Assembly: GCA_963719585.1 (NCBI GenBank)
Contig: CAVRCM010000003.1
Location: 1,012,721-1,076,720 of the forward strand
Reading direction: 5' to 3'
Source: an uncultured Acidobacteriaceae bacterium
Lineage (GTDB): Bacteria; Acidobacteriota; Terriglobia; Terriglobales; Acidobacteriaceae
DNA: 64,000 nt
This document shows, piece after piece, positions 29,453 through 41,824 of this stretch; within the stretch, counting starts at the first letter, position 1; every line of letters begins with the position of its first letter. Under the pieces are notes generated by a model, which saw only the letters and a program-made list of their open reading frames with translations, searched no databases and had not been told where the DNA came from. The position numbers and the translations under genes were made by a program.

Positions 29453-29666
29453 CGGCCGCGATGTACGGCCCTTTCGACAAACCGGAAGGGATCGGACAAC
29501 CTATGCATAAATATGTTATCCAACAACAGGGCTACGAGTCGGTAACGACCGGTAGTTACTTGCGACAGTGGAATTTCCTATGGTACAAACGACCAGTCGC
29601 AAAAGTTACGCAAGATGCCATCGCTAAACCATCTTATAACTCAACAGCGCAAAATTCTGGAGTGCA

Positions 29667-29966
29667 GTGGTTGTTGTAATTGCTGTGGCCGCGCTGACGA
29701 TGAGCGTGGCGACTCGCTATTATTCCCTTCAGGATACTTCCTCTCGTCCTGTCAGCACCGTCCAAAAACAAGCTGTTCCGGATGCGAGACCGCAGCGCCT
29801 TACCAAAAACGCCGCCATCTGGAGTCCTCCAGTATTTTCTTTTGCAGTTTCGCAGGTCCCCAGTTTTCATCCTCGCATTGATTCCGCCCGGCCCCTGCGG
29901 CGAAGTCTGGTCCGTGATACAAGCCTCTACAATCGGCCTCCTCCCGCTTCTAATTCCTTCTCATAG
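29667..29966 (+). CDS. Small TM-anchored protein ending YNRPPPASNSFS* (paralogue of 40605-40937); candidate leader/arrest peptide
   Basis: GTG start with GGAG 5 nt upstream, an N-terminal helix (VVVIAVAALTMSVA) and a Pro/Ser-rich linker. Its C-terminal motif is shared with the second ORF in this window. Confidence 0.4.
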   Translation: MVVVIAVAALTMSVATRYYSLQDTSSRPVSTVQKQAVPDARPQRLTKNAAIWSPPVFSFAVSQVPSFHPRIDSARPLRRSLVRDTSLYNRPPPASNSFS

Positions 29967-30163
29967 GTTCCTAATCGATCCGGTCATCGTCACTGAGTTG
30001 TTGCTCGCAGTTTAGCGCTGAGACTTGGTAACCTAAATCCCAGGAACCGCATCCATGCAGCTTCTTGCGCGTGGATTGGCAGGCGAGGTCGGGCGAGGAT
30101 TGGATTGGCCGGGCCGATAGAAACCGATTAGGTAGACATTTCAGTTCCGAGAAAGGAAATGCT

Positions 30164-30898
30164 ATGCAGGCTGCGCCTTCGTTGACGGGAGATGAGCTCG
30201 ACGCTCTACGCCAATTCGATACCTGCACGGTGGCGAATGCGATCGAGTCGTTTAATGTCAGGCTCCGTAACACGGGCTTTACCGACGCTCGCATCCGTTG
30301 CATGTTCGAGGACGCACCATCCACCGTCGGTTACGCGGCAACCGCCCATTTGCGCAGCGGAGAGCCGCCAATCGGCGGCGGCACATTCCATGACCGCGCC
30401 GATTTCTGGAATAGCATTCTCGAAATTCCCGCCCCACGCATTCTGGTCCTGGAGGATATGGACACTCATCCCGGACGAGGCGCTTTTGTGGGAGACATGC
30501 ATGCTGCCATCTTGCAGGCTCTGGGTTGCGTCGCCTACGTCACGAATGGCGCCGTGCGCGAATTGCCTTCCGTCCGCAAAATGGGATTTCAGCTGTTCGC
30601 CGGGAGCGTAGCCGTTTCTCACGCCTACGCCCATATCTTTGAGATTGGGACGCGAGTCACCGTGGCGGGGATGGACGTGCGGCCGGGGGATTTATTGCAC
30701 GGCGACCGGCACGGAATTCTTACCGTACCGCCTGAAATTGCGCCGTGCATTCCCGCCGCGGCAGATCGAATGCAACAGGCGGAGCAGGAAATAATCCGTT
30801 TTTGCCAATCCGAGGATTTTTCCGTCGCGAAATTAGGCGAGATCATGAACAGACGCTTGAGGAAGCGAAACGCGAATGAGGCGAGGACAATTCGATGA
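30164..30898 (+). CDS. RraA family protein (RNase E regulator A / HMG-aldolase-like fold)
   Basis: LRQFDTCTVANAIE, RILVLEDMDTHPGRGAFVGDMHAAILQALG, and GDLLHGDRHGILTVP. ATG 30164 follows GAAAGGAA. Its stop overlaps the next ATG (ATGA). Confidence 0.75.
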   Translation: MQAAPSLTGDELDALRQFDTCTVANAIESFNVRLRNTGFTDARIRCMFEDAPSTVGYAATAHLRSGEPPIGGGTFHDRADFWNSILEIPAPRILVLEDMDTHPGRGAFVGDMHAAILQALGCVAYVTNGAVRELPSVRKMGFQLFAGSVAVSHAYAHIFEIGTRVTVAGMDVRPGDLLHGDRHGILTVPPEIAPCIPAAADRMQQAEQEIIRFCQSEDFSVAKLGEIMNRRLRKRNANEARTIR

Positions 30899-32170
30899 TG
30901 GAAGCCTGCATTCGATTCGTTAAGCGGCCGCTCCGCCCTTCGATGCCGTTGCTTTCCTGCCTCCTTGCCAGCATGGTGGCCGCAACGGCGGTGTTGTCAT
31001 CCTGCTCAGGCAGCCGCGATGAGCGGGTGCAGGCGAGCACGGAGGTGCCTACAGTCGGAGTGACAAACGTAGTGAAAAAATCTCTCAGCCAGCGACTTAC
31101 CTTATCTTCCGAACTGGTGCCCTTCCAGGAAATCGATGTCTACGCTAAGGAATCAGGCTTCGTACAAAAACTGAATGTCGATTACGGAACTCACGTGAAG
31201 ACCGGCCAGGTGATGGCAGTTCTTGAAATTCCGGAGCTGCAGGCGCAACTCCAGGAAGATGAGGCGGAGATCAAAAATGCAGCAAACCAAGTGACCCGGG
31301 CGCGGAACGAACTATCTCGTTACGAAGCACAGTATAAAGCACTGCACCTGGAATACACGCGTTTGAATGGAGTCTTTCAAAGCCAGCCCGGAATTGTGGC
31401 GCAGCAAGAAGTGGACGACGCTCAGGGCAAGGATCTCGCGGCGTCGTCTCAAGTAGACGCCGGCCAGGCAGCCCTGGAAGCGGCGCAGAGCCAGATGGGC
31501 GCGACTAAGGCGAAGTTGGTTCACGACCAAAGTCTGTTCGATTATTCGAAAATCACAGCGCCGTTTGCCGGAGTGGTAACCGAGCGTTATGCGAACCTCG
31601 GCACACTGGTGCAAGCGGGAACCGGTTCGAGTACTCAGGCCATGCCCATCGTCCGCCTGTCCGAAGACGATCTATTCCGGCTGGTGATTCCAGTGCCGGA
31701 GTCCTATGTTCGATATATCAAAGTGGGCGATCCCGTGGACGTTCATGTGCCTTCACTGGATCGCACTTTTCCCGGCAAGGTAGCGCGCTTTTCCGTAGAT
31801 GTGCGGGAAGACACTCGCACCATGCACACCGAGGTGGATGTTTCCAATCCGCAACGCATCTTGCTGCCCGGCCTCTATGCGGAAGCAAAGTTAAATCTTG
31901 AACAAGAACACGATGTTCCCACCGTGCCGATCCAGGCTTTAAACCACGAAGGCGAGAGAATCACCGTTCTCGTGGTTGACGGGAACGGCGCCTTGGAAGA
32001 GCGGACTGTGCAGGTAGGTCTCCAGACCGCAAGCGATGCCGAAATTCTCTCGGGATTGAACCGCGGGTGAGCAGGTCGTTGTCAGTGATCGCAGTGGGCT
32101 AAAGCCGGGAGAAAAAGTTCAGGCGCGGGAAGTGGCCATGATGCAGTACCACGAGGACAATACGCAGTAA
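30895..32170 (+). pseudogene. Efflux RND periplasmic adaptor (MFP/HlyD family) lipoprotein; frame break near 32058-32068
   Basis: Lipobox VLSSCSG, then coiled-coil and barrel-sandwich motifs (ITAPFAGVVTERYANLGTLV). After ILSGLN the natural C-terminus GEQVVVSDRSGLKPGEKVQAREV...NTQ* is in the next frame (stop 32168-32170). Confidence 0.85.
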
Positions 32171-32217
32171 TCCGCAGACCGCTCTAGCCAGCTCTGCGGC
32201 GCAACTGGACAAACATT

Positions 32218-35200
32218 ATGCCAGGGTTTTCGATTCGCAATCCGTACTTCATCGTCGTGATCTGCCTGACACTTCTGGTCATCGGCGTGACCAGCCTGGC
32301 GCGGATGCCGGTGGATTTGTTCCCTCCGATCAATCTGCCCGAAGTCGTAGTGGCCACCTTCTACACGGGAATGCCGCCCGAGGATATTGAAACCGACATC
32401 ACTGATCCTCTGGAACGCTTCTTTACTCTGGCATCCGGCGTCGACCACATGGAATCGCGCTCCATGTTAGGCGTCAGCATTATCCGCGTTTACTTCCAAC
32501 CGGGAACCAGCGCAGATGCCGACGTAAGCCAGCTGTCGAACCTGGCGCTCGCCGACTTGAAGCGTTTGCCCCCGGGGACTCTGCCTCCCGTGGTCCTCAA
32601 GTTCGACGCTTCCAGTCTTCCCGTGGCGCTGGTTACCGTGAAAGGCGAAGGACTCAGCGAAACTCAACTTCACGATTACGCTCAGTTTCAGATTCGCAAC
32701 CAGATCGCAGTCGTTCCCGGCGCGGAAATTCCAGGCGTATTCGGTGGAATCTACCGCCAGGTCATGGTCTACGTCGACCCCTACAAACTGGAGTCCCGTC
32801 AACTTAGCGTGATGGACGTGGTCAGTGCGGTCAATGATGCCAATCTGATTCTGCCCGCTGGCGACGTAAAAATGGGGCCCTACGATTACTTCGTTTACTC
32901 CAACAGCCTGGTCGACAACATGAAGCAACTGGGAGAGGTTCCGATCAAGGTAAAGGGCCACTCCTGGGTAACGGTCAATGACGTTGGAAAAGCGGAAGAT
33001 GCTCACGGAATTCAAACCAACATTGTGCGGATCGATGGCCAGCGATCTGCCTATATTCCGATTATGAAGCAGGGCGGCGATACCAACACCATCGCCGTCG
33101 TCGATGGCGTCCGCCAACTTATCAAGCACTTATACGATATTCCCCAGCAGATGAAGACCAGCGTTGTTTTTGACCAGTCAGTGTTTGTGAAGGAGGCAAT
33201 TCGCACGGTATTGCATGAAGGCGCGTTGGGTTTGATTCTTACCAGCTTGATGATTCTCATTTTTCTGGGAAGTTTTCGCGCGACGACGGCGGTATTGCTG
33301 TCCATTCCTTTGTCCGCGCTGGCCGCATTTGTGGTGCTGGCCTTAATGGGCGGGACGATCAATACAATGATCCTGGGCGGAATGGCACTGGCATTCTCCC
33401 GCGTAATCGATAATTCTGTCATTTCGCTGGAGAACATTTACCGCCATCTGGAGATGGGCGCCGCGCCCATGATTGCCGCGGAGGTCGGCGGCCAGGAGGT
33501 AAACCTGGCGGTGTTGGCCGCCACTCTGGTCGATGTGGTCGATTTCTTCCCCGTCGTTTTTCTTTATGGCGTGGCCAAGTTTCTCTTTTCCGCATTGGCG
33601 CTGGCATTTTGCTTGTCTCTGCTGGCTTCGTTTGTCGTAGCGATGACAGTGATCCCCTTATTTTGCTCGCGCTTCTTGAAGGCCGTACATCACGTCCCGG
33701 AGCATACAAAAAAGGACGATGAGTATGAAGTCGAACCAACCGCCCCGCAGAGTCAATCCTGGATGGACCGGTTCAACGCCCGCTTCAACCGCATGTTCAA
33801 CAAACTCCTCGATTACTACGAACACTGGGTGAGACGAGCGTTGGTGCGTCCGGGACTTACTGTCGCGATTTTAAGCTGCGTGTTTCTGGCAAGCTTGGCA
33901 ATTTATCCATTGTTAGGCTTGGCATTTTTCCCCAAGACGGACGCTGGTCAGTTCACCATCAACATGAAAGTTCCCACCGGCACCCGGATTGAGATGGCCA
34001 ACCAATACGTGGCCAAGGTGGAAGATCTGATTCGCCACGAAGTTGAACCAAAAGATTTCAAACGCATTGTGTCCAACATCGGCGTAGTTCCTGATTTTTC
34101 CTCGCTCTACACCACCAACTCTGGCCCTTACACCGCAACCGTCCAGGTAGCTTTGAATGAACCGCACCGGCTCAGCAGCTTCGAATATATGGATCGGGTG
34201 CAGAAGGCGATGGCCAGCCAGTTCCCCGATGTTCGCACATTTTTTTCCAGTGGTTCGATGGTCGATGCCATTTTGAATTCTGGCGCGCCGGCTCCCATCG
34301 ATGTGCAGGTCAGCAGCCCTGATCTGGATCAGATCTACGGCATCGCGCAGCATTTGGCTGCTCGCATTCGAGAGGTGCATGGCGTCGGCCAGGTCTTCAT
34401 CCCGCAGGATATGAATTATCCGGCTCTGCGGCTCGACGTAGACCGCGTGCACGCCGGTGAGTTAGGACTGACGCAAAAAGACGTGGTCGATAACGTGATC
34501 ACTGCGCTCAATTCCAATTACATGATCGCCCCCAATTATTGGGTGGATCGCAAAAGCGGAAACGACTATTACCTCACTGTCCAATATTTCGAACATGGTG
34601 ATGCGGCCATTCATAACATGGCCGACTTGGGACAGATTCCGCTACGCGATCCGGGAAGCGGAGCGGGAATGACCTGCGGTCCCAGTCGGCCCGCCCCAGC
34701 CCGGTACCGGCCACTCTTCATGGGCGTGTCTTGGGCCGGGCAGGCCGACGACGGTGCTCAAGAATGTCGTCGACGTAAAGCAGATTTTGACTCCGACTGA
34801 AGTGGATCACTATCAGATCCAGCGAGCCGTCGACATCTTTGTTACTCCCAACGGAGAAGACCTTGGACGCGTGACCAGCGCCATTCGAGACATTCTTGCC
34901 AAAGAAAAGTCGATCCCCTCCAACGTGCGCGTACATCTCCGCGGGATGGTGCAGGGCATGGAGGCCTCATTCAAGAGCTTTGCCTTCGGCTTCCTGATTT
35001 CTTTTCTCCTGCTGTTCCTCATCCTGACCGCGCAGTTCAAGTCATTCATCGATCCTTTTCTGATCATGCTCGCAATCCCGATGGGTTTTGTCGGTGTGCT
35101 GATCATACTGCCGCTCACTCACGCCACATTGAATGTCATGTCTTTGATGGGGGTGCTGATGCTGGTTGGTATTGCCGACTCGAACAGCATTCTGATCGTT

Positions 35201-35503
35201 GACTTCGCTCACAACCTTGAGCGCCAGGGACTAGCTCCGGCAGACGCAGTGATCACCGCCTGCCGGGTGCGTCTGCGACCGATTCTAATGACCTCTCTGG
35301 CAACCATTATCGGAATGATTCCAATGGCGCTGAAACTGGGTACTGGCGCGGAACAGTATGCCCCCATGGCGAAGGCCATCATCGGAGGGTTGACCTCTTC
35401 CGTGGTGCTGACCATCTTCATCGTGCCCGCGGCTTATTTGCTGGTATACGGCAAAAAGAATCCGCAAACCGCGGCAACTCCGCAGACGGAGCCAGCGAAA
35501 TAA
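32218..35503 (+). pseudogene. RND efflux permease (AcrB/HAE family); one or two frame breaks between ~34640 and 34760
   Basis: MPGFSIRNPYFIVVICLTLLVIGV and 12-TM RND organisation. ORF 32218 decays into non-homologous sequence after LGQIPLRD. ORF 34754 resumes with TEVDHYQIQRAVDIFV...MSLMGVLMLVGIADSNSILIVDF. Confidence 0.9.
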
Positions 35504-37665: not shown

Positions 37666-38072
37666 TTGCGTTCCCAATCTGGCTCGGCTTTGGCGTTCGG
37701 TCATGAAAGCCTTCGCTCTTCGCGATTTTTGATTCCCGAAAACTACACAGGTTGGGTCCGCGTCGAATTCGACGTGCAAGGCGCTCCTCCATTGCCCATG
37801 GATCACGGCGAATACACCATTGAAATTCCTTCAGGCGGAATATTGCGAACTTCTTCGGCTGAACAATATGGATGGGCGCACGATCGATACTATTACTACT
37901 CTGGCCAGACGATGCACTCGCTTTCAGATTCCGGGGAAGGCCGCGATGATCTGGGGAAAACTCAACGGAGAAGCTGCCGGCAAATCAGGTAAACAAAAGT
38001 ATGAGGAGTTTTTCGTCGGAACCGCTCGAGCAGTTCAAGGATCAAGGCAAAGAAAAACATCCTTCTCCATAA
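37666..38072 (+). pseudogene. Conserved hypothetical (FLIPENYTGWVRVEF...GAPPLP family, DUF6843-like by memory); at least 2 frame breaks
   Basis: RFLIPENYTGWVRVEFDVQGAPPLPMDHGEYTIEIPSGGILRTSSAEQYGWAHDRYYYYSG, then MIWGKLNGEA...EEFFVGT in a second frame and EQFKDQGKEKHPSP* in a third. A TM helix sits upstream in yet another frame. Confidence 0.4.
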
Positions 38073-38107
38073 CGCGGGACCGCGAAGCCGCTATCGCCCA
38101 TCACGCA

Positions 38108-38957
38108 TCAGAAAAGCAAGCGTGAAGTCAGCACGAGCCCATGATTGTAAGTGTGGAATTGCGAAGTCGCAATCTGCATGCCACCGCCAAAGATCAACCC
38201 GAGCCGGTTACGGGGGTCGCGCTGCAGTTTGAAGTTGCTCAGCATCAATCCCGGTGTCACAAAATTCTGCACGTGGCCGTCATTCGTTCCGCCGTGATAG
38301 AAAGTTGCATTGCTCTCGATCTCCGGCCAGAGGAATTTGATGAGGTGATACTGCGCCACCGTATTCCAGGCCACTACACGACCTAGTTTTGCCGAGTAAC
38401 CTGCGGGCAGACCACGCCAATACTCGATTGCACATCAAACCTTCGAAAACCTTTGCCCCCACAAACAATCGGAGTAACGGTCGAGGCCAGGCTTCCGTTC
38501 TTATAGCTGCCGGTGGGCAATGTGCCTGTCAGAGAAACACTCAACGAATAATTACCGCCCTCTTCATTGGCTGCAACCACGCGGTACTTCAGCAGCATGG
38601 AAAAGTCACCAAAGCCATCCACCGCTTTCGAATTGTGCTGGATATATGGCGGAGCCAGCGCATCGAATTCCAGGTTGTACCAGGGCACCAGACTAACGCC
38701 CTTCCCGTTGTCATAGTTCCAGGTGTCGGTACCCGCCGGCGCAATCTGCCGGACAACATCCGTCCGCGCCACCTGCAACAATCCCGACGACGCCGTCACC
38801 AGAGGAATTGGCCAGGAAGGCTGCTGCGCCAGCGTGCTGCGCACACGATCTTCCCAGTTTGTGAAGAAACTCGAGCGACTGGCTCTGCCCTGCGCACAGC
38901 GAACTTCCACCCAACCGCGCTACAGCGCACACACAACACCAGCAGTCTCTTGAAGAT
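38108..38957 (-). pseudogene. Outer-membrane beta-barrel protein (MetA-pathway/phenol-degradation-like transporter family); at least 2 frame breaks (~38425, ~38900)
   Basis: Signal peptide VIFKRLLVLCV in one frame. A second frame carries PSWPIPLVTASSGLLQ...DGFGDFSMLLKYRV...GGKGFRRFDVQSS. A third carries YWRGLPAGYSAKLGRVVAWNTVAQYH...GGGMQIATSQFHTYNHGLVLTSRLLF* (terminal Phe). Confidence 0.6.
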
Positions 38958-39570
38958 CACAGCGCCTCCCGACTGATACTCAAGCGATAAAGCTTGACCT
39001 TTATTTTTGTTGGAACCCCGTGCAACCCCACACGAAAGAGTTCCAACTTTTTAACGGTTGTGTCGGGAAGTGTCGATAATCGGAATCAACTAGAGCCGGG
39101 AATACCAATCCAGTTTATTTCTGGCTATCTGCGCTCTAAATGTTTGATCGACAAGCAGGCTCGCGCAATGCGACCAGCGGTTATAAACCATGCATGCGAT
39201 TTGCAGTAGGCAGAAATGTCGCGCCAGTTACCATCCGGCGGGGCGATCGGAGGCCCTTCGAATGAACGGATTTCCGCACTCAGCACTTTAATCTGAAGTG
39301 GCGACTCCTTCGACGGGGCACTCGCGGCCGCTACTAATAAAAGAGTGAGGACACAAGATTTGGCGCGGAACAGAATCCTCCTCGGCCCCGACTATGGAGA
39401 TGTTGCGAACGCGGCTGTGGTTGGCTATGCGATTCGAAACACCACGTCCCATTTGTCGCTCATGGATTAAAGAAAACCTCAAACCACCTCCCGCCCGCAT
39501 CTAATTATGAAAGCCTTGCAAGAAACATGGGCCGCACGACCAGCGCACAGGCTTTGTCGGGAGAACAGCC

Positions 39571-40512
39571 ATGTACAAACTTTCTTTTCTATCGTGTATC
39601 GCAGTCGCTATGAGCGTTTTCTTGCCCACCCTCCTTCCAGCCCAAGAAGCGAACGCGCCGTCGGCGTCAGCCCGTTTGCTGGTGACGGTCGAAGCGCTTC
39701 ACGGCAAGGATGTACCCGAAGTCACGCGTCCGGATGTGATCGTGTTCGAAGGCCGGGACCGTGACGAAGTTAGCAATTGGGTGCCTGCGCAAGGAGACAA
39801 CGCAGCGCTCGAACTTTTCATTCTTCTTGATGATGGATCCACCGCGAGTCTCGGGTCTCAACTGAACGAGCTTCGCCAATTTATCAACTCTCAGCCGGAA
39901 TCGACCAAGGTCGGAGTTGCCTACATGCAGAACGGGATCGCGAAAGTGCAACAGGGTTTAACTGCCGATCATAATGCGGCAGCGCAATCTCTCAGGCTGC
40001 CCTTGGGTGAGCGCGGAATTAACGGCAGCCCTTATTTTTCTCTCACCGATCTGATCAAGCATTGGCCGCAAACCTCGGCCCGGCGAGAGGTTCTCATGAT
40101 TACGGACGGAATCGATCCCTACTATGGCGGTTGGGATCCACAGGATCCTTATCTCAGTGCCGCCATCGAGGACGCCCAGCGCGCAGGCGTAGTGGTCTTT
40201 GCTATTTACACCCCAGGAGTCGGTCATTTCGATCATAGTTATGGGCGCACCTATTGGGGCCAGATGTATCTTTCGCGGCTCGCCGATGAGACCGGCGGCG
40301 AATCCTATTACATCGGATTCAATGGCCCACCCGTAAGCTTCGACCCTTACCTCGACGATATGGCTGCTCATCTCGCTCATCAGTATTTCTTGACGTTCAT
40401 TCCCAAGCCGCAAAAAACGAGCGGCTGGCGCTCCATAAGATTGAAGACTGAAGTTCCCAACGCAGATTTAGTCTCAGCGGATAAAGTTTACGTCGTCGGC
40501 ATAAATCCCTAG
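39571..40512 (+). CDS. VWA-like secreted protein (acidobacterial VWFA-related domain, TIGR03436-like)
   Basis: A signal peptide, then LELFILLDDGST, REVLMITDGIDPY, AGVVVFAIYTPG, and LADETGGESYY. Confidence 0.75.
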   Translation: MYKLSFLSCIAVAMSVFLPTLLPAQEANAPSASARLLVTVEALHGKDVPEVTRPDVIVFEGRDRDEVSNWVPAQGDNAALELFILLDDGSTASLGSQLNELRQFINSQPESTKVGVAYMQNGIAKVQQGLTADHNAAAQSLRLPLGERGINGSPYFSLTDLIKHWPQTSARREVLMITDGIDPYYGGWDPQDPYLSAAIEDAQRAGVVVFAIYTPGVGHFDHSYGRTYWGQMYLSRLADETGGESYYIGFNGPPVSFDPYLDDMAAHLAHQYFLTFIPKPQKTSGWRSIRLKTEVPNADLVSADKVYVVGINP

Positions 40513-40604: not shown

Positions 40605-40937
40605 ATGTCGCAGGAGCGGCATTTTCGGAGACACAGCCACGCACTCATGTTTCGAGCCGGGCTTGCGTCCGTTGTGCTCTTCGCCCTGCTGAATGCGCGC
40701 GATATCCCTTCGCATTTCCGGCCCACATCGAAAACTCACTCCACCATAACTTCCGATTCTCAGCACGATCAGAGGCCTCGGTTTGACCATCACACTTTGG
40801 ATTGGAACGTTGCAGCACCCACTATCCTGCCGTTTCCTACGTTCGACAAATCGGCGCATCCGACCCCAGCGCCGCAATTATTCTCTACTCTTCAAACCAA
40901 GGGATTTCACTTCAACCGCCCGCCTCCGTTCAGCTGA
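40605..40937 (+). CDS. Small TM-anchored protein ending HFNRPPPFS* (paralogue of 29667-29966); candidate leader/arrest peptide
   Basis: ATG start, TM helix (AGLASVVLFALL) and a Pro/Thr/His-rich linker. It shares landmarks with the 29667 ORF (D-x-RP, W, P-[ST]-F, [YF]NRPPP near the stop). Confidence 0.4.
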   Translation: MSQERHFRRHSHALMFRAGLASVVLFALLNARDIPSHFRPTSKTHSTITSDSQHDQRPRFDHHTLDWNVAAPTILPFPTFDKSAHPTPAPQLFSTLQTKGFHFNRPPPFS

Positions 40938-41049
40938 TCGCCTGGTATTTGAGCCTCAGTCAATCCAACCGTAGCGATTGGCTGACCCTGTCACTTCAGC
41001 AGATACCAACGTGAAGTGGAGCAAATCGAAGACCCTGGGGAGGGACACA

Positions 41050-41395
41050 ATGAGCGGAATGACAATTCTGTGCATCGAGGATCAGTTCGACAATATGGCA
41101 ACTCTCACCTGCATGCTGGAAGGGATTGGTTACGAAGTCATCGCGGCAACGCAATGCGAAACAGGCGATTGATCTTTTTGCAGACCAACCCGTCGACGGA
41201 GTGCTGTTGAAATATAACCTGCCCGACGCAGTTGGCACCAGCCTGCGTGCCGAGCTCAAAGCCATACGGCCTAATGTTCCCGTGTTGTTGTTCGATGGAA
41301 TCGGCAGCCAAACTCCGGTCATGCTGCGCTTTTTCGATGCATATCTCAGGAACATGGAACGCCTTGCAAGCGATTTAGGAGACTTGGAAGCATGA
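41050..41395 (+). pseudogene. Stand-alone receiver-like domain lacking the phospho-acceptor Asp; frame break near 41150
   Basis: TILCIEDQFDNMATLTCMLEGIGYEVIAAT continues in the next frame as NAKQAIDLFADQPVDGVLLKYNLPDAVG...VPVLLFDG...FDAYLRN. Lys occupies the usual Asp position (LLKYNLP versus LLDxxMP). The conserved Thr/Ser and Lys also appear replaced. Confidence 0.7.
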
Positions 41396-41824
41396 AAACA
41401 CAGCAAAAGACGATAAGAATGAATCACCTCAGAAATTCAGCGCTTCAAGCACATTCTCAAAGTTCGCCTGGAGCAGACGATAAGATCACTCGATCGATTG
41501 CACGACGAAACCCGAAGCATCGATTCTGACTCACCTTCTGACTCCGCCGATCAGTGCGTGCTCAGTCTCTCTCGGGAAGCGCTCTTCCACCAGAGTGGGG
41601 AACGACGCGTCATGGTTCGACGAATTGAAGCCGCTCTCAGCCGAATCAAGAAAAATAGTTTCGGAATTTGTATTGGCTGCGGCGACAGTATCAATTCCCG
41701 TCGGCTTGAGGCTCTCCCTTGGACGCAGTACTGTCTTGACTGCCAGGAGGATTTGGAGCGCAACCAGACATTAAGCCAAACCAGCCGGCCTCATCGCGAA
41801 GTTGCGTTAAGAAAAACGGGTTGA
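41392..41824 (+). pseudogene. DksA/TraR-family C4 zinc-finger protein; probable frame break near 41423-41432 (or non-canonical start)
   Basis: C4 finger CIGCGDSINSRRLEALPWTQYCLDCQ. The helical N-terminal region EIQRFKHILKVRLEQTIRSL lies upstream of the listed TTG 41498 and just after an in-frame TGA. ATG 41392 overlaps the receiver stop (ATGA) but is in another frame. Confidence 0.7.

Follow-up and report, generated by a model that had tools for sequence, protein, structure and literature searches.

Small open reading frames ending in NRPPP at the head of efflux and regulatory operons in Terriglobia: a family of candidate ribosome-arrest leaders

Two small ORFs and the operons that follow them

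The DNA analyzed here is a 64,000-nucleotide stretch of contig CAVRCM010000003.1 (assembly GCA_963719585.1) from an uncultured Acidobacteriaceae bacterium, hereafter called the window. It contains two small open reading frames (ORFs) that end in the same C-terminal motif, [YF]NRPPP plus a short tail, and that both precede genes on the same strand. ORF1 (29667-29966, + strand) was read in the window as 99 codons plus a stop, from a GTG with GGAG at 29659-29662 on its 5′ side. Its translation runs VVVVIAVAALTMSVATRYY...DTSLYNRPPPASNSFS up to the stop or, with a longer extract of the C-terminus, VVVVIAVAALTMSVATRYY...RDTSLYNRPPPASNSFS. ORF2 (40605-40937, + strand) encodes 110 amino acids, carries the elements HDQRPRFD and W67, and terminates in LQTKGFHFNRPPPFS (i.e. 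...GFHFNRPPPFS directly before the stop), with FNRPPP at 40911-40928. The two align without a gap from the hydrophobic segment to NRPPP. When all six frames of the window were scanned, NRPPP was found at these two sites only. Resampling with a first-order Markov model, in which dinucleotide frequencies were kept, gave an expectation of 0.165 NRPPP per window and of 0.06 ORFs of at least 80 amino acids with RPPP at most 7 residues from the end, compared with the two observed. ORF1 and ORF2 are paralogues of one large undescribed family. ORF1 belongs to a subfamily (subfamily A) with 19 homologues at 51-97% identity, and ORF2 to a second one (subfamily B) with 40 homologues at 43-93% identity.

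Downstream of ORF1, an untranslated spacer of 197 nt (29967-30163, + strand), poorly conserved in sequence outside close relatives, leads to a gene of the aldolase/RraA family (30164-30898, + strand; Pfam PF03737, E = 6e-21), hereafter RraA-like, whose position is also kept by synteny. It is followed by genes for resistance-nodulation-division (RND) efflux (30895-35503, + strand), namely a membrane fusion protein (MFP) adaptor (30895-32070) and an RND permease that is split by indels into 32218-34800 and 34754-35503; in relatives, a gene for an outer membrane efflux protein (OEP) lies 3′ of the permease. ORF2 is followed (40938-41824, + strand) by a spacer of 113 nt, a receiver-only response regulator that starts at ATG 41051 and loses its frame through an additional C at 41150, and a DksA/TraR-type gene reaching to 41824. 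ORF1 and ORF2 flank one cluster of 12 kb.

This arrangement is kept among relatives. Members of subfamily A always lie 5′ of RraA-like, MFP, RND, and OEP genes, at a distance of 140-340 nt, and they hold this position down to 51% identity. At locus L005 the upstream neighbor differs and the position ahead of the operon is kept, and at L006, where there is no RraA-like gene, the MFP gene follows the small ORF directly. Subfamily B members are always found 5′ of a receiver-only response regulator, usually with a DksA/TraR gene next. A further group, subfamily C (RQHLDRDA..W...SLYNRPPPSC), precedes genes for a pyridine-nucleotide oxidoreductase (Pyr_redox), TauE/SafE, DUF3300, MFP, or unannotated proteins. 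The spacers to the next gene measure ~108-340 nt and are untranslated; genes within the downstream operons abut or overlap. The initial annotation had already noticed the second ORF with its similar layout and terminal motif and had placed each ORF at the head of a same-strand operon, both of which these comparisons bear out.

Gene model and layout of ORF1

The initial annotation described ORF1 as a 99-codon reading frame from a GTG with GGAG upstream, beginning with a transmembrane helix. Frame and GGAG are present as described; the start and the helix fared less well. Counterparts of ORF1 in four related genomes begin at an in-frame ATG equivalent to window position 29615 and encode 116 amino acids (MPLLNHLITQQRKIWSAVVVV...). 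Alignment with L001, L020, L021, and L024 showed a single inserted base in the window, a C at 29657, which breaks the frame of ATG 29615 from the body of ORF1. Given the upstream ATG in relatives and the 1-nt insertion in the window, GTG 29667 was rejected as the native start, and native ORF1 probably comprises 116 amino acids from ATG 29615 rather than 99 codons from the GTG. The stretch at 29615-29666 (+ strand; MPSLNHLITQQRKI...) would then be the ancestral 5′ end and would provide a positively charged n-region that the extra C has put out of frame with the body.

Other conserved genes in the window also carry isolated 1-nt insertions (28781, 32063, 41150, 41427, and 42720), so that the insertion at 29657 is most likely an assembly error. 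Compared with the 92-96%-identical relatives L001 and L054, the full set of insertion sites consists of 28781, 29657, 32063, 34680-34686, 41150, 41427, and 42720; the genes broken by them are a PALP gene, the N-terminus of ORF1, the end of the MFP gene, the RND permease, the response regulator, and the DksA-like gene. The isolated insertions most likely reflect assembly or sequencing error and not biology or pseudogenization.

The hydrophobic h-region of ORF1 (VVVIAVAALTMSVA, then TRYY; 29670-29711, + strand) is a likely Sec signal peptide or signal anchor. The hydrophobic stretch spans only 14-17 residues and is followed by a cleavage-type site, between A and T of S-V-A-T in subfamily A and between A and R of L-A-A-R in subfamily B. 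Read from sequence, the N-terminus resembles a cleavable Sec signal peptide more than a membrane anchor, at odds with the transmembrane helix proposed initially. A mid module, D39-A-R-P-Q-R44-L... with W52 and P54 (29781-29828, + strand), lies at a gapless fixed distance of ~45 residues before RPPP and is a candidate sensor or ruler element. The candidate arrest motif Y88-N-R-P-P-P93 is encoded by TAC AAT CGG CCT CCT CCC (29928-29945, + strand) and is conserved in the family. It is followed by a tail of six residues, ASNSFS, and a TAG stop (29946-29966, + strand); tails of two or six residues are the rule among homologues. The 3′ two-thirds of ORF1 and ~25 nt past its stop form a C-rich, G-poor stretch (29730-29990, + strand; C 0.32-0.37, G 0.14-0.24), a candidate region resembling a Rho utilization (rut) site. 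AlphaFold2 (AF2), run on an alignment of 36 sequences, predicted a helix at residues 2-19 only, with a predicted local distance difference test score of ~50-63 elsewhere and a predicted template modeling score of 0.21.

A large family with gapless spacing

A family profile combining subfamilies A and B was searched against 1.84 billion representative proteins. It matched 544 clusters (50% identity) at E ≤ 1e-3 and 250 at E ≤ 1e-10, and nearly all matches reached the C-terminus of the protein. Of 205 family proteins, 198 carried RPPP among their last 14 residues; the tail behind it measured two residues in 127 proteins and six in 43. To these figures, stacking of 184 sequences on RPPP with no gaps permitted added a measure of positional conservation. 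Next to RPPP, Y or F occupied position -2 in 95% and N position -1 in 88% of the sequences. The mid module stayed in register as well, with R at -48 (85%), F or L at -45, R at -46 (77%), W at -38 (88%), and P at -35 (85%), and hydrophobicity peaked at -88 to -75. The family layout is thus a signal-peptide-like N-terminus, a mid motif R-x-R-[FL]/W/P, and [YF]-N-R-P-P-P with two or six residues behind it. By these conservation data, ORF1 is a genuine coding gene under conservation, and the [YF]NRPPP C-terminus is the most conserved feature of the family.

Outside the shared layout, each subfamily has conserved blocks of its own: TRYY, PDA+xQRLTKNAAxWxPP, and SLYNRPPPA in subfamily A; HHDQRPRFD, W, and LFSTLQTKGFH[FY]NRPPP plus two residues in subfamily B. 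Between the two, there were zero indels from the hydrophobic segment to NRPPP; R44, N89, R90, and P91-93 were invariant and W52 was near-invariant in the joint alignment, and W52 and P54 were invariant in the alignment of subfamily A. A disordered region that neither gains nor loses residues across hundreds of clusters would behave like a ruler.

Wherever a locus carried an organism name, that organism belonged to Terriglobia. All 34 loci found in GTDB species genomes derived from metagenome-assembled genomes of Acidobacteriota/Terriglobia (Sulfotelmatobacter, Acidiferrales, Terriglobales), and the one source name given among the 19 homologues of ORF1 was Candidatus Sulfotelmatobacter. As a check, the initial annotation had suggested looking for a conserved [YF]NRPPP C-terminus and a conserved operon-head position in Acidobacteriota, and both were found. 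Several paralogues occur per genome, often adjoining, and subfamilies A and B are divergent or tandem neighbors in at least 13 genomes. As a side observation, an ORF of subfamily B typically has an A-like ORF as its divergent neighbor. We also noted 63 NRPPP-type ORFs across L001-L053, many of which had not been called in the source annotations, e.g. L015 4767-5237 (- strand) and L016 4857-5225 (- strand). Gene callers often miss these ORFs or mis-set their starts. With the family defined, hundreds of 'hypothetical proteins' gain a name and a role that can be tested.

Codon choice in the polyproline motif

The middle proline codon of PPP was CCT in 49 of 56 distinct sequences (88%), compared with 15% CCT in the long ORFs of the same loci. 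At the first and third proline, all four synonyms were used and varied freely. Pro-Pro synthesis is slow at CCU and CCC, and these codons are as a rule avoided in first position; RPPP serves as a 'strong pauser' reference motif whose pausing depends on elongation factor P (EF-P), and the choice of CCU modulates pausing and sets CadC levels (PMC8129111). In the tested arrest peptide uA_LPPP, the second proline of the motif occupies the ribosomal P site (PMC10987492), and in the contexts of ApdA and ApdP part of the arrest is kept when the x of RxPP is Pro (PMC12992588). The near-fixed slow CCT at the would-be P-site proline suggests that pausing has been selected for. As another explanation for the codon bias, we considered that CCUCC within the PPP codons serves as an anti-Shine-Dalgarno (anti-SD) sequence for a downstream GGAGG. 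This is plausible for some subfamily B loci and was rejected as a general explanation because subfamily A has SD sequences of the AAGGA type yet shows an equal CCT bias.

Relation to known leader peptides

The closest likeness is to the DUF2946 (PF11162) proteins CutF of Rhodobacter capsulatus (cutFOG), which has a C-terminal PPP and EF-P-dependent regulation, and CruR of Bordetella pertussis (bp2923). Both are small and exported, carry a Sec signal at the N-terminus, and hold a conserved sensor motif at constant spacing to the arrest motif. CXXC and RAPP of CruR are separated by 45 intervening residues, a spacing conserved to within 1-2 (PMC9426467); in the family described here, the R at -46 likewise lies 45 residues before the R of RPPP. 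Further points in common are a Pro-rich motif a few residues before the stop (PPP in CutF, RAPP in CruR) and a predicted lack of structure. CutF and CruR also head operons that serve the envelope or transport, and they too have a long intergenic region, of 162 bp in CruR. With the signal peptide read from sequence, the architecture of the DUF2946 type (Sec signal, C-terminal proline repeat near the stop, fixed spacing) is thus present. Membership in DUF2946 was nonetheless rejected. None of 53 members of subfamilies A and B (21 + 32) matched PF11162 in hmmscan at E ≤ 10, and neither the subfamily alignments nor the 184-sequence stack contained CXXC, CXXXC, or any conserved Cys column. Instead, the sensor-like motif is R-x-R-[FL]...W..P, with H-H-D present in subfamily B and not in A. 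The families also differ in phylum (Acidobacteriota here, mostly Proteobacteria for DUF2946) and in downstream genes, which comprise RND efflux, response regulator plus DksA, and others here rather than copper genes, and no SD-shielding stem-loop was found.

A second group of similar peptides includes ApdA, ApdP, the RQH family, the RAPP/RGPP upstream ORFs (uORFs) of Streptomyces lividans, and uA_LPPP of Planctomycetota. They share with the present family a localization signal at the N-terminus, the uORF position, and R-x-P-P or x-P-P-P within the last ~15 residues, and small secretory uORFs with RAPP or RGPP occur upstream of diverse genes well beyond sec and yidC. Those families were defined by a position 5′ of secA, secDF, or yidC, or by RAPP/RGPP, and RPPP families were not surveyed there; in contrast, the family here is conserved extensively outside the motif and has many paralogues per genome. 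A role as a monitoring substrate of Sec or YidC, with secA, secDF, or yidC downstream, was rejected, as the downstream genes are RraA-like/MFP/RND, response regulator plus DksA, Pyr_redox, TauE, and DUF3300. SecM, VemP, and MifM resemble the family in combining an export signal with a C-terminal arrest sequence near the stop and in regulating the next gene through the nascent chain. They differ in that there is no sequence similarity and in that they unmask an SD sequence within a short structured spacer, of which none was found here.

The tnaCAB operon offers a comparison for the step after the stall. There, Rho-dependent attenuation is relieved by a ribosome stalled at termination on TnaC, a cytoplasmic peptide of 24 amino acids, in a tryptophan-dependent manner. 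By analogy, a ribosome stalled beside the stop codon of the leader, with a spacer of ~200 nt behind it, would block Rho, and the C-rich 3′ end of the leader could act as rut. Members of the present family are longer than TnaC and carry a likely export signal, and a role of Rho is a candidate only.

No match of the family was found in Pfam, NCBIfam, or the PDB (neither window ORF matched Pfam or NCBIfam), and no paper on NRPPP in a relevant context was found in the literature searched. The initial remark that this is not a described family thus holds for the sequence family and does not hold for its class, which is known from CutF, CruR, uA_LPPP, and the RAPP/RGPP uORFs. What sets the family apart within that class are its sensor-like module, phylum, target operons, and paralogue expansion; what is new is a well-defined family that can be tested, not a principle.

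A candidate arrest leader and its rivals

On the strength of the conservation, layout, synteny, and codon bias shown above and of the likeness to these systems, we modestly favor the reading that the ORF1 family consists of ribosome-stalling (arrest) leaders that regulate the downstream operon. Such leaders would be lineage-specific, Sec-targeted, and intrinsically unstructured, and it would be the nascent chain that acts, not the finished protein. The signal peptide would bring the nascent chain to the translocon, and the ribosome would pause or arrest at Y-N-R-P-P-P with the second proline (CCU) as the P-site and the third as the A-site residue, 2-6 codons short of the stop; for both the targeting and the pause, we infer this from tested RxPP and xPPP peptides. 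What follows is speculative. The length of the pause may be set by the fate of the exported part, in which the conserved module (R-x-R-[FL]...W..P; in subfamily B, HHDQRPRFD) keeps a constant spacing of ~45 residues to the site of arrest. Translocation pulling force, binding of a ligand or partner, or EF-P capacity are candidate inputs. A ribosome paused near the stop would in turn raise expression of the downstream operon (RraA-like/MFP/RND/OEP) across an untranslated spacer of 110-340 nt. The most likely route would be that Rho is kept from the 3′ part of the ORF, which is rich in C and poor in G, as has been demonstrated with CruR and TnaC; alternatively, the RNA of the spacer might be remodeled as for CutF and SecM.

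A more far-reaching version of the arrest-leader reading is possible, and we put it forward tentatively. The family might constitute a multi-copy, modular 'exported ruler' in Terriglobia, made up of signal peptide, R-x-R-[FL]/W/P module, exactly 45 residues, and YNRPPP. One extracytoplasmic or translocation cue would be wired in parallel to the RND pump, the response regulator/DksA pair, and other operons by an EF-P-resistant arrest, so that a regulon would stand under paralogous arrest peptides and not under a transcription factor, with a sensor module unrelated to the Cys/His metal sites of DUF2946.

Several observations weigh against an arrest leader. EF-P normally resolves stalls at PPP. 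The co-transcription of ORF1 with the downstream genes is an assumption, and a promoter may lie within the spacer. The protein-level constraint on the mid module, W, and P of the exported part would equally be expected of an exported peptide acting in trans. At the RNA level, the spacers folded no better than shuffled sequences (z = +0.93 and -0.16, single-sequence folds). RNAalifold gave -19.8 kcal/mol for ten close subfamily A loci with a covariation term of only -0.57, and more distant spacers did not align. No intrinsic terminator was detected in either window spacer. As to a rut site, C exceeded G over the last ~200 nt of every small ORF examined (family mean C-G +0.14 compared with -0.04 in intergenic sequence). 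This bias was fully accounted for by composition (0.142 observed, 0.141 expected from amino-acid composition and background codon usage) and thus provides no independent evidence for a rut site. We therefore dropped it as evidence for Rho and kept the C excess as a permissive feature only. It resembles a C>G bubble that has been mapped as the rut region of cruR (PMC9426467). A Rho mechanism like that of CruR or TnaC is weakly favored over unmasking of the SD.

In the mechanism proposed in the initial annotation, a ribosome paused on RPPP would occlude an anti-SD at the end of ORF1 (TTCCTTCTC, 29954-29962) and thereby free the SD region of the RraA-like gene (GAGAAAGGAA, 30149-30158). Both sequences are where they were reported and are complementary over 9 bp with one bulge, and of all parts of the leader it is the ORF tail that pairs best with the SD region at L004, L031, L023, and L038. 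In the window, however, the duplex had a free energy of -10.4 kcal/mol, where composition-matched shuffles gave -9.9 ± 2.3 kcal/mol (z = -0.22); moreover, 16 of 26 tiles of the intergenic spacer bound the SD region at least as well. The 3′ end of ORF1 took up 0.04 of the pairing probability of the SD region in the partition function. The pairing expected across 29950-30160 was missing from the minimum free energy and centroid folds and gained no support from covariation. Over 15 loci, the mean z for pairing between ORF tail and SD was -0.45, and homologues showed no conservation of the pairing, the tail sequence itself not being conserved across the subfamily. Masking of the SD by the 3′ end of ORF1 is at chance level, and we regard this mechanism as very unlikely. 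A different element overlaps the same SD, namely a UUCC-GAGAAA-GGAA mini-hairpin or palindrome (30143-30158, + strand) that takes in AAGGA, the SD of the RraA-like gene. Subfamily A loci keep the GAAAGGAAA block, and the 5′ arm of the hairpin is not universal. This palindrome may act as a protein operator or as a small hairpin that masks the SD. A UUCC-(G)AAA-GGAA palindrome over the RraA-like SD is also seen at the equivalent sites of L001, L004, L008, and L035.

The main rival, rather doubtful in our view, is the idea that the finished products matter, as exported or membrane-tethered mini-proteins that act in trans. They could serve envelope systems, the RND pump for example, as adaptors, inhibitors, or signaling peptides, or could provide an input to the response regulator. 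NRPPP and the tail would then be a C-terminal docking or processing motif, and any pausing would be incidental. Conservation along the whole exported part (R-x-R-[FL], W, P), subfamily-specific tails (...PPPSC and ...PPPIS before the stop), tight linkage to particular partner operons, and the failure to find an RNA element coupling the ORF to the downstream gene would all fit this idea. It sits less well with the absence of a predicted fold, with a conservation of length without gaps that is unusual for a disordered region, and with the long spacers to the next gene, which are unlike those between normal operon partners. Moreover, the same module heads unrelated operons, including those of purely cytoplasmic regulators (response regulator, DksA), and a synonymous bias toward slow CCT at the P-site proline is unexpected for a mere binding motif. 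The codon bias at the second proline would also fit a sensor of EF-P or Pro-tRNA capacity. The pause at PPP would then show how well the cell can translate polyproline, or how far Pro-tRNA is charged, irrespective of export, and would tune the operon to match, in the way that PPP sets CadC copy number. RPPP as a strong EF-P-dependent pauser, the effect of CCU on pausing and CadC levels (PMC8129111), and the EF-P dependence of CutF regulation point in the same direction. A capacity sensor would, however, leave the invariant signal peptide, the conserved exported module, and its fixed distance to PPP unexplained, and the many paralogues of a genome would all report one signal; we consider it unlikely.

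If the stall proposed under the arrest-leader reading is real, the principle known from CutF, CruR, and the RAPP peptides, by which an exported chain still under synthesis reads conditions beyond the cytoplasm and so controls an operon, would reach a new phylum, Acidobacteriota. It would do so with a new motif, YNRPPP, and would gain an RND efflux pump and global regulators of the response regulator/DksA type as targets. The 544 clusters with their gapless spacing and paralogues would then form a clean natural data set on how tether length and upstream tunnel residues tune polyproline arrest against EF-P. Acidobacteriota are abundant in soil and hard to culture.

Further observations at the loci

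Two features of subfamily B loci concern the nucleotide sequence. In most of them, the spacer begins with TCC or TCG right after the stop (40938-40940 in the window; also L015, L016, L031, L034, and L035), and the start context of the response regulator, ATGAGCGGAATGA, is nearly invariant, a conservation at the nucleotide level. At L045, a divergent member (...HYTRPPPLG before the stop) lies upstream of VWA genes, the nearest of which is ~890 nt downstream.

A third PPP-containing mini-ORF in the window (39394-39504, 36 codons, ...KPPPARI before the stop, with CCA CCT CCC) was considered as a further candidate. Its frame is not kept in the 96%-identical L054, and it was treated as a chance occurrence. 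It sits 66 nt 5′ of a VWA gene and is probably no third leader. The gene 5′ of ORF2 (39571-40512) matched TIGR03436 (acidobact_VWFA) with E = 5e-15, below the curated cutoff. Finally, a segment of ~1.4 kb between DUF6843-like and VWA genes (38040-39446) has no counterpart in L054, where only ~60 nt are found, and holds a minus-strand ORF of 175 amino acids (38383-38910).

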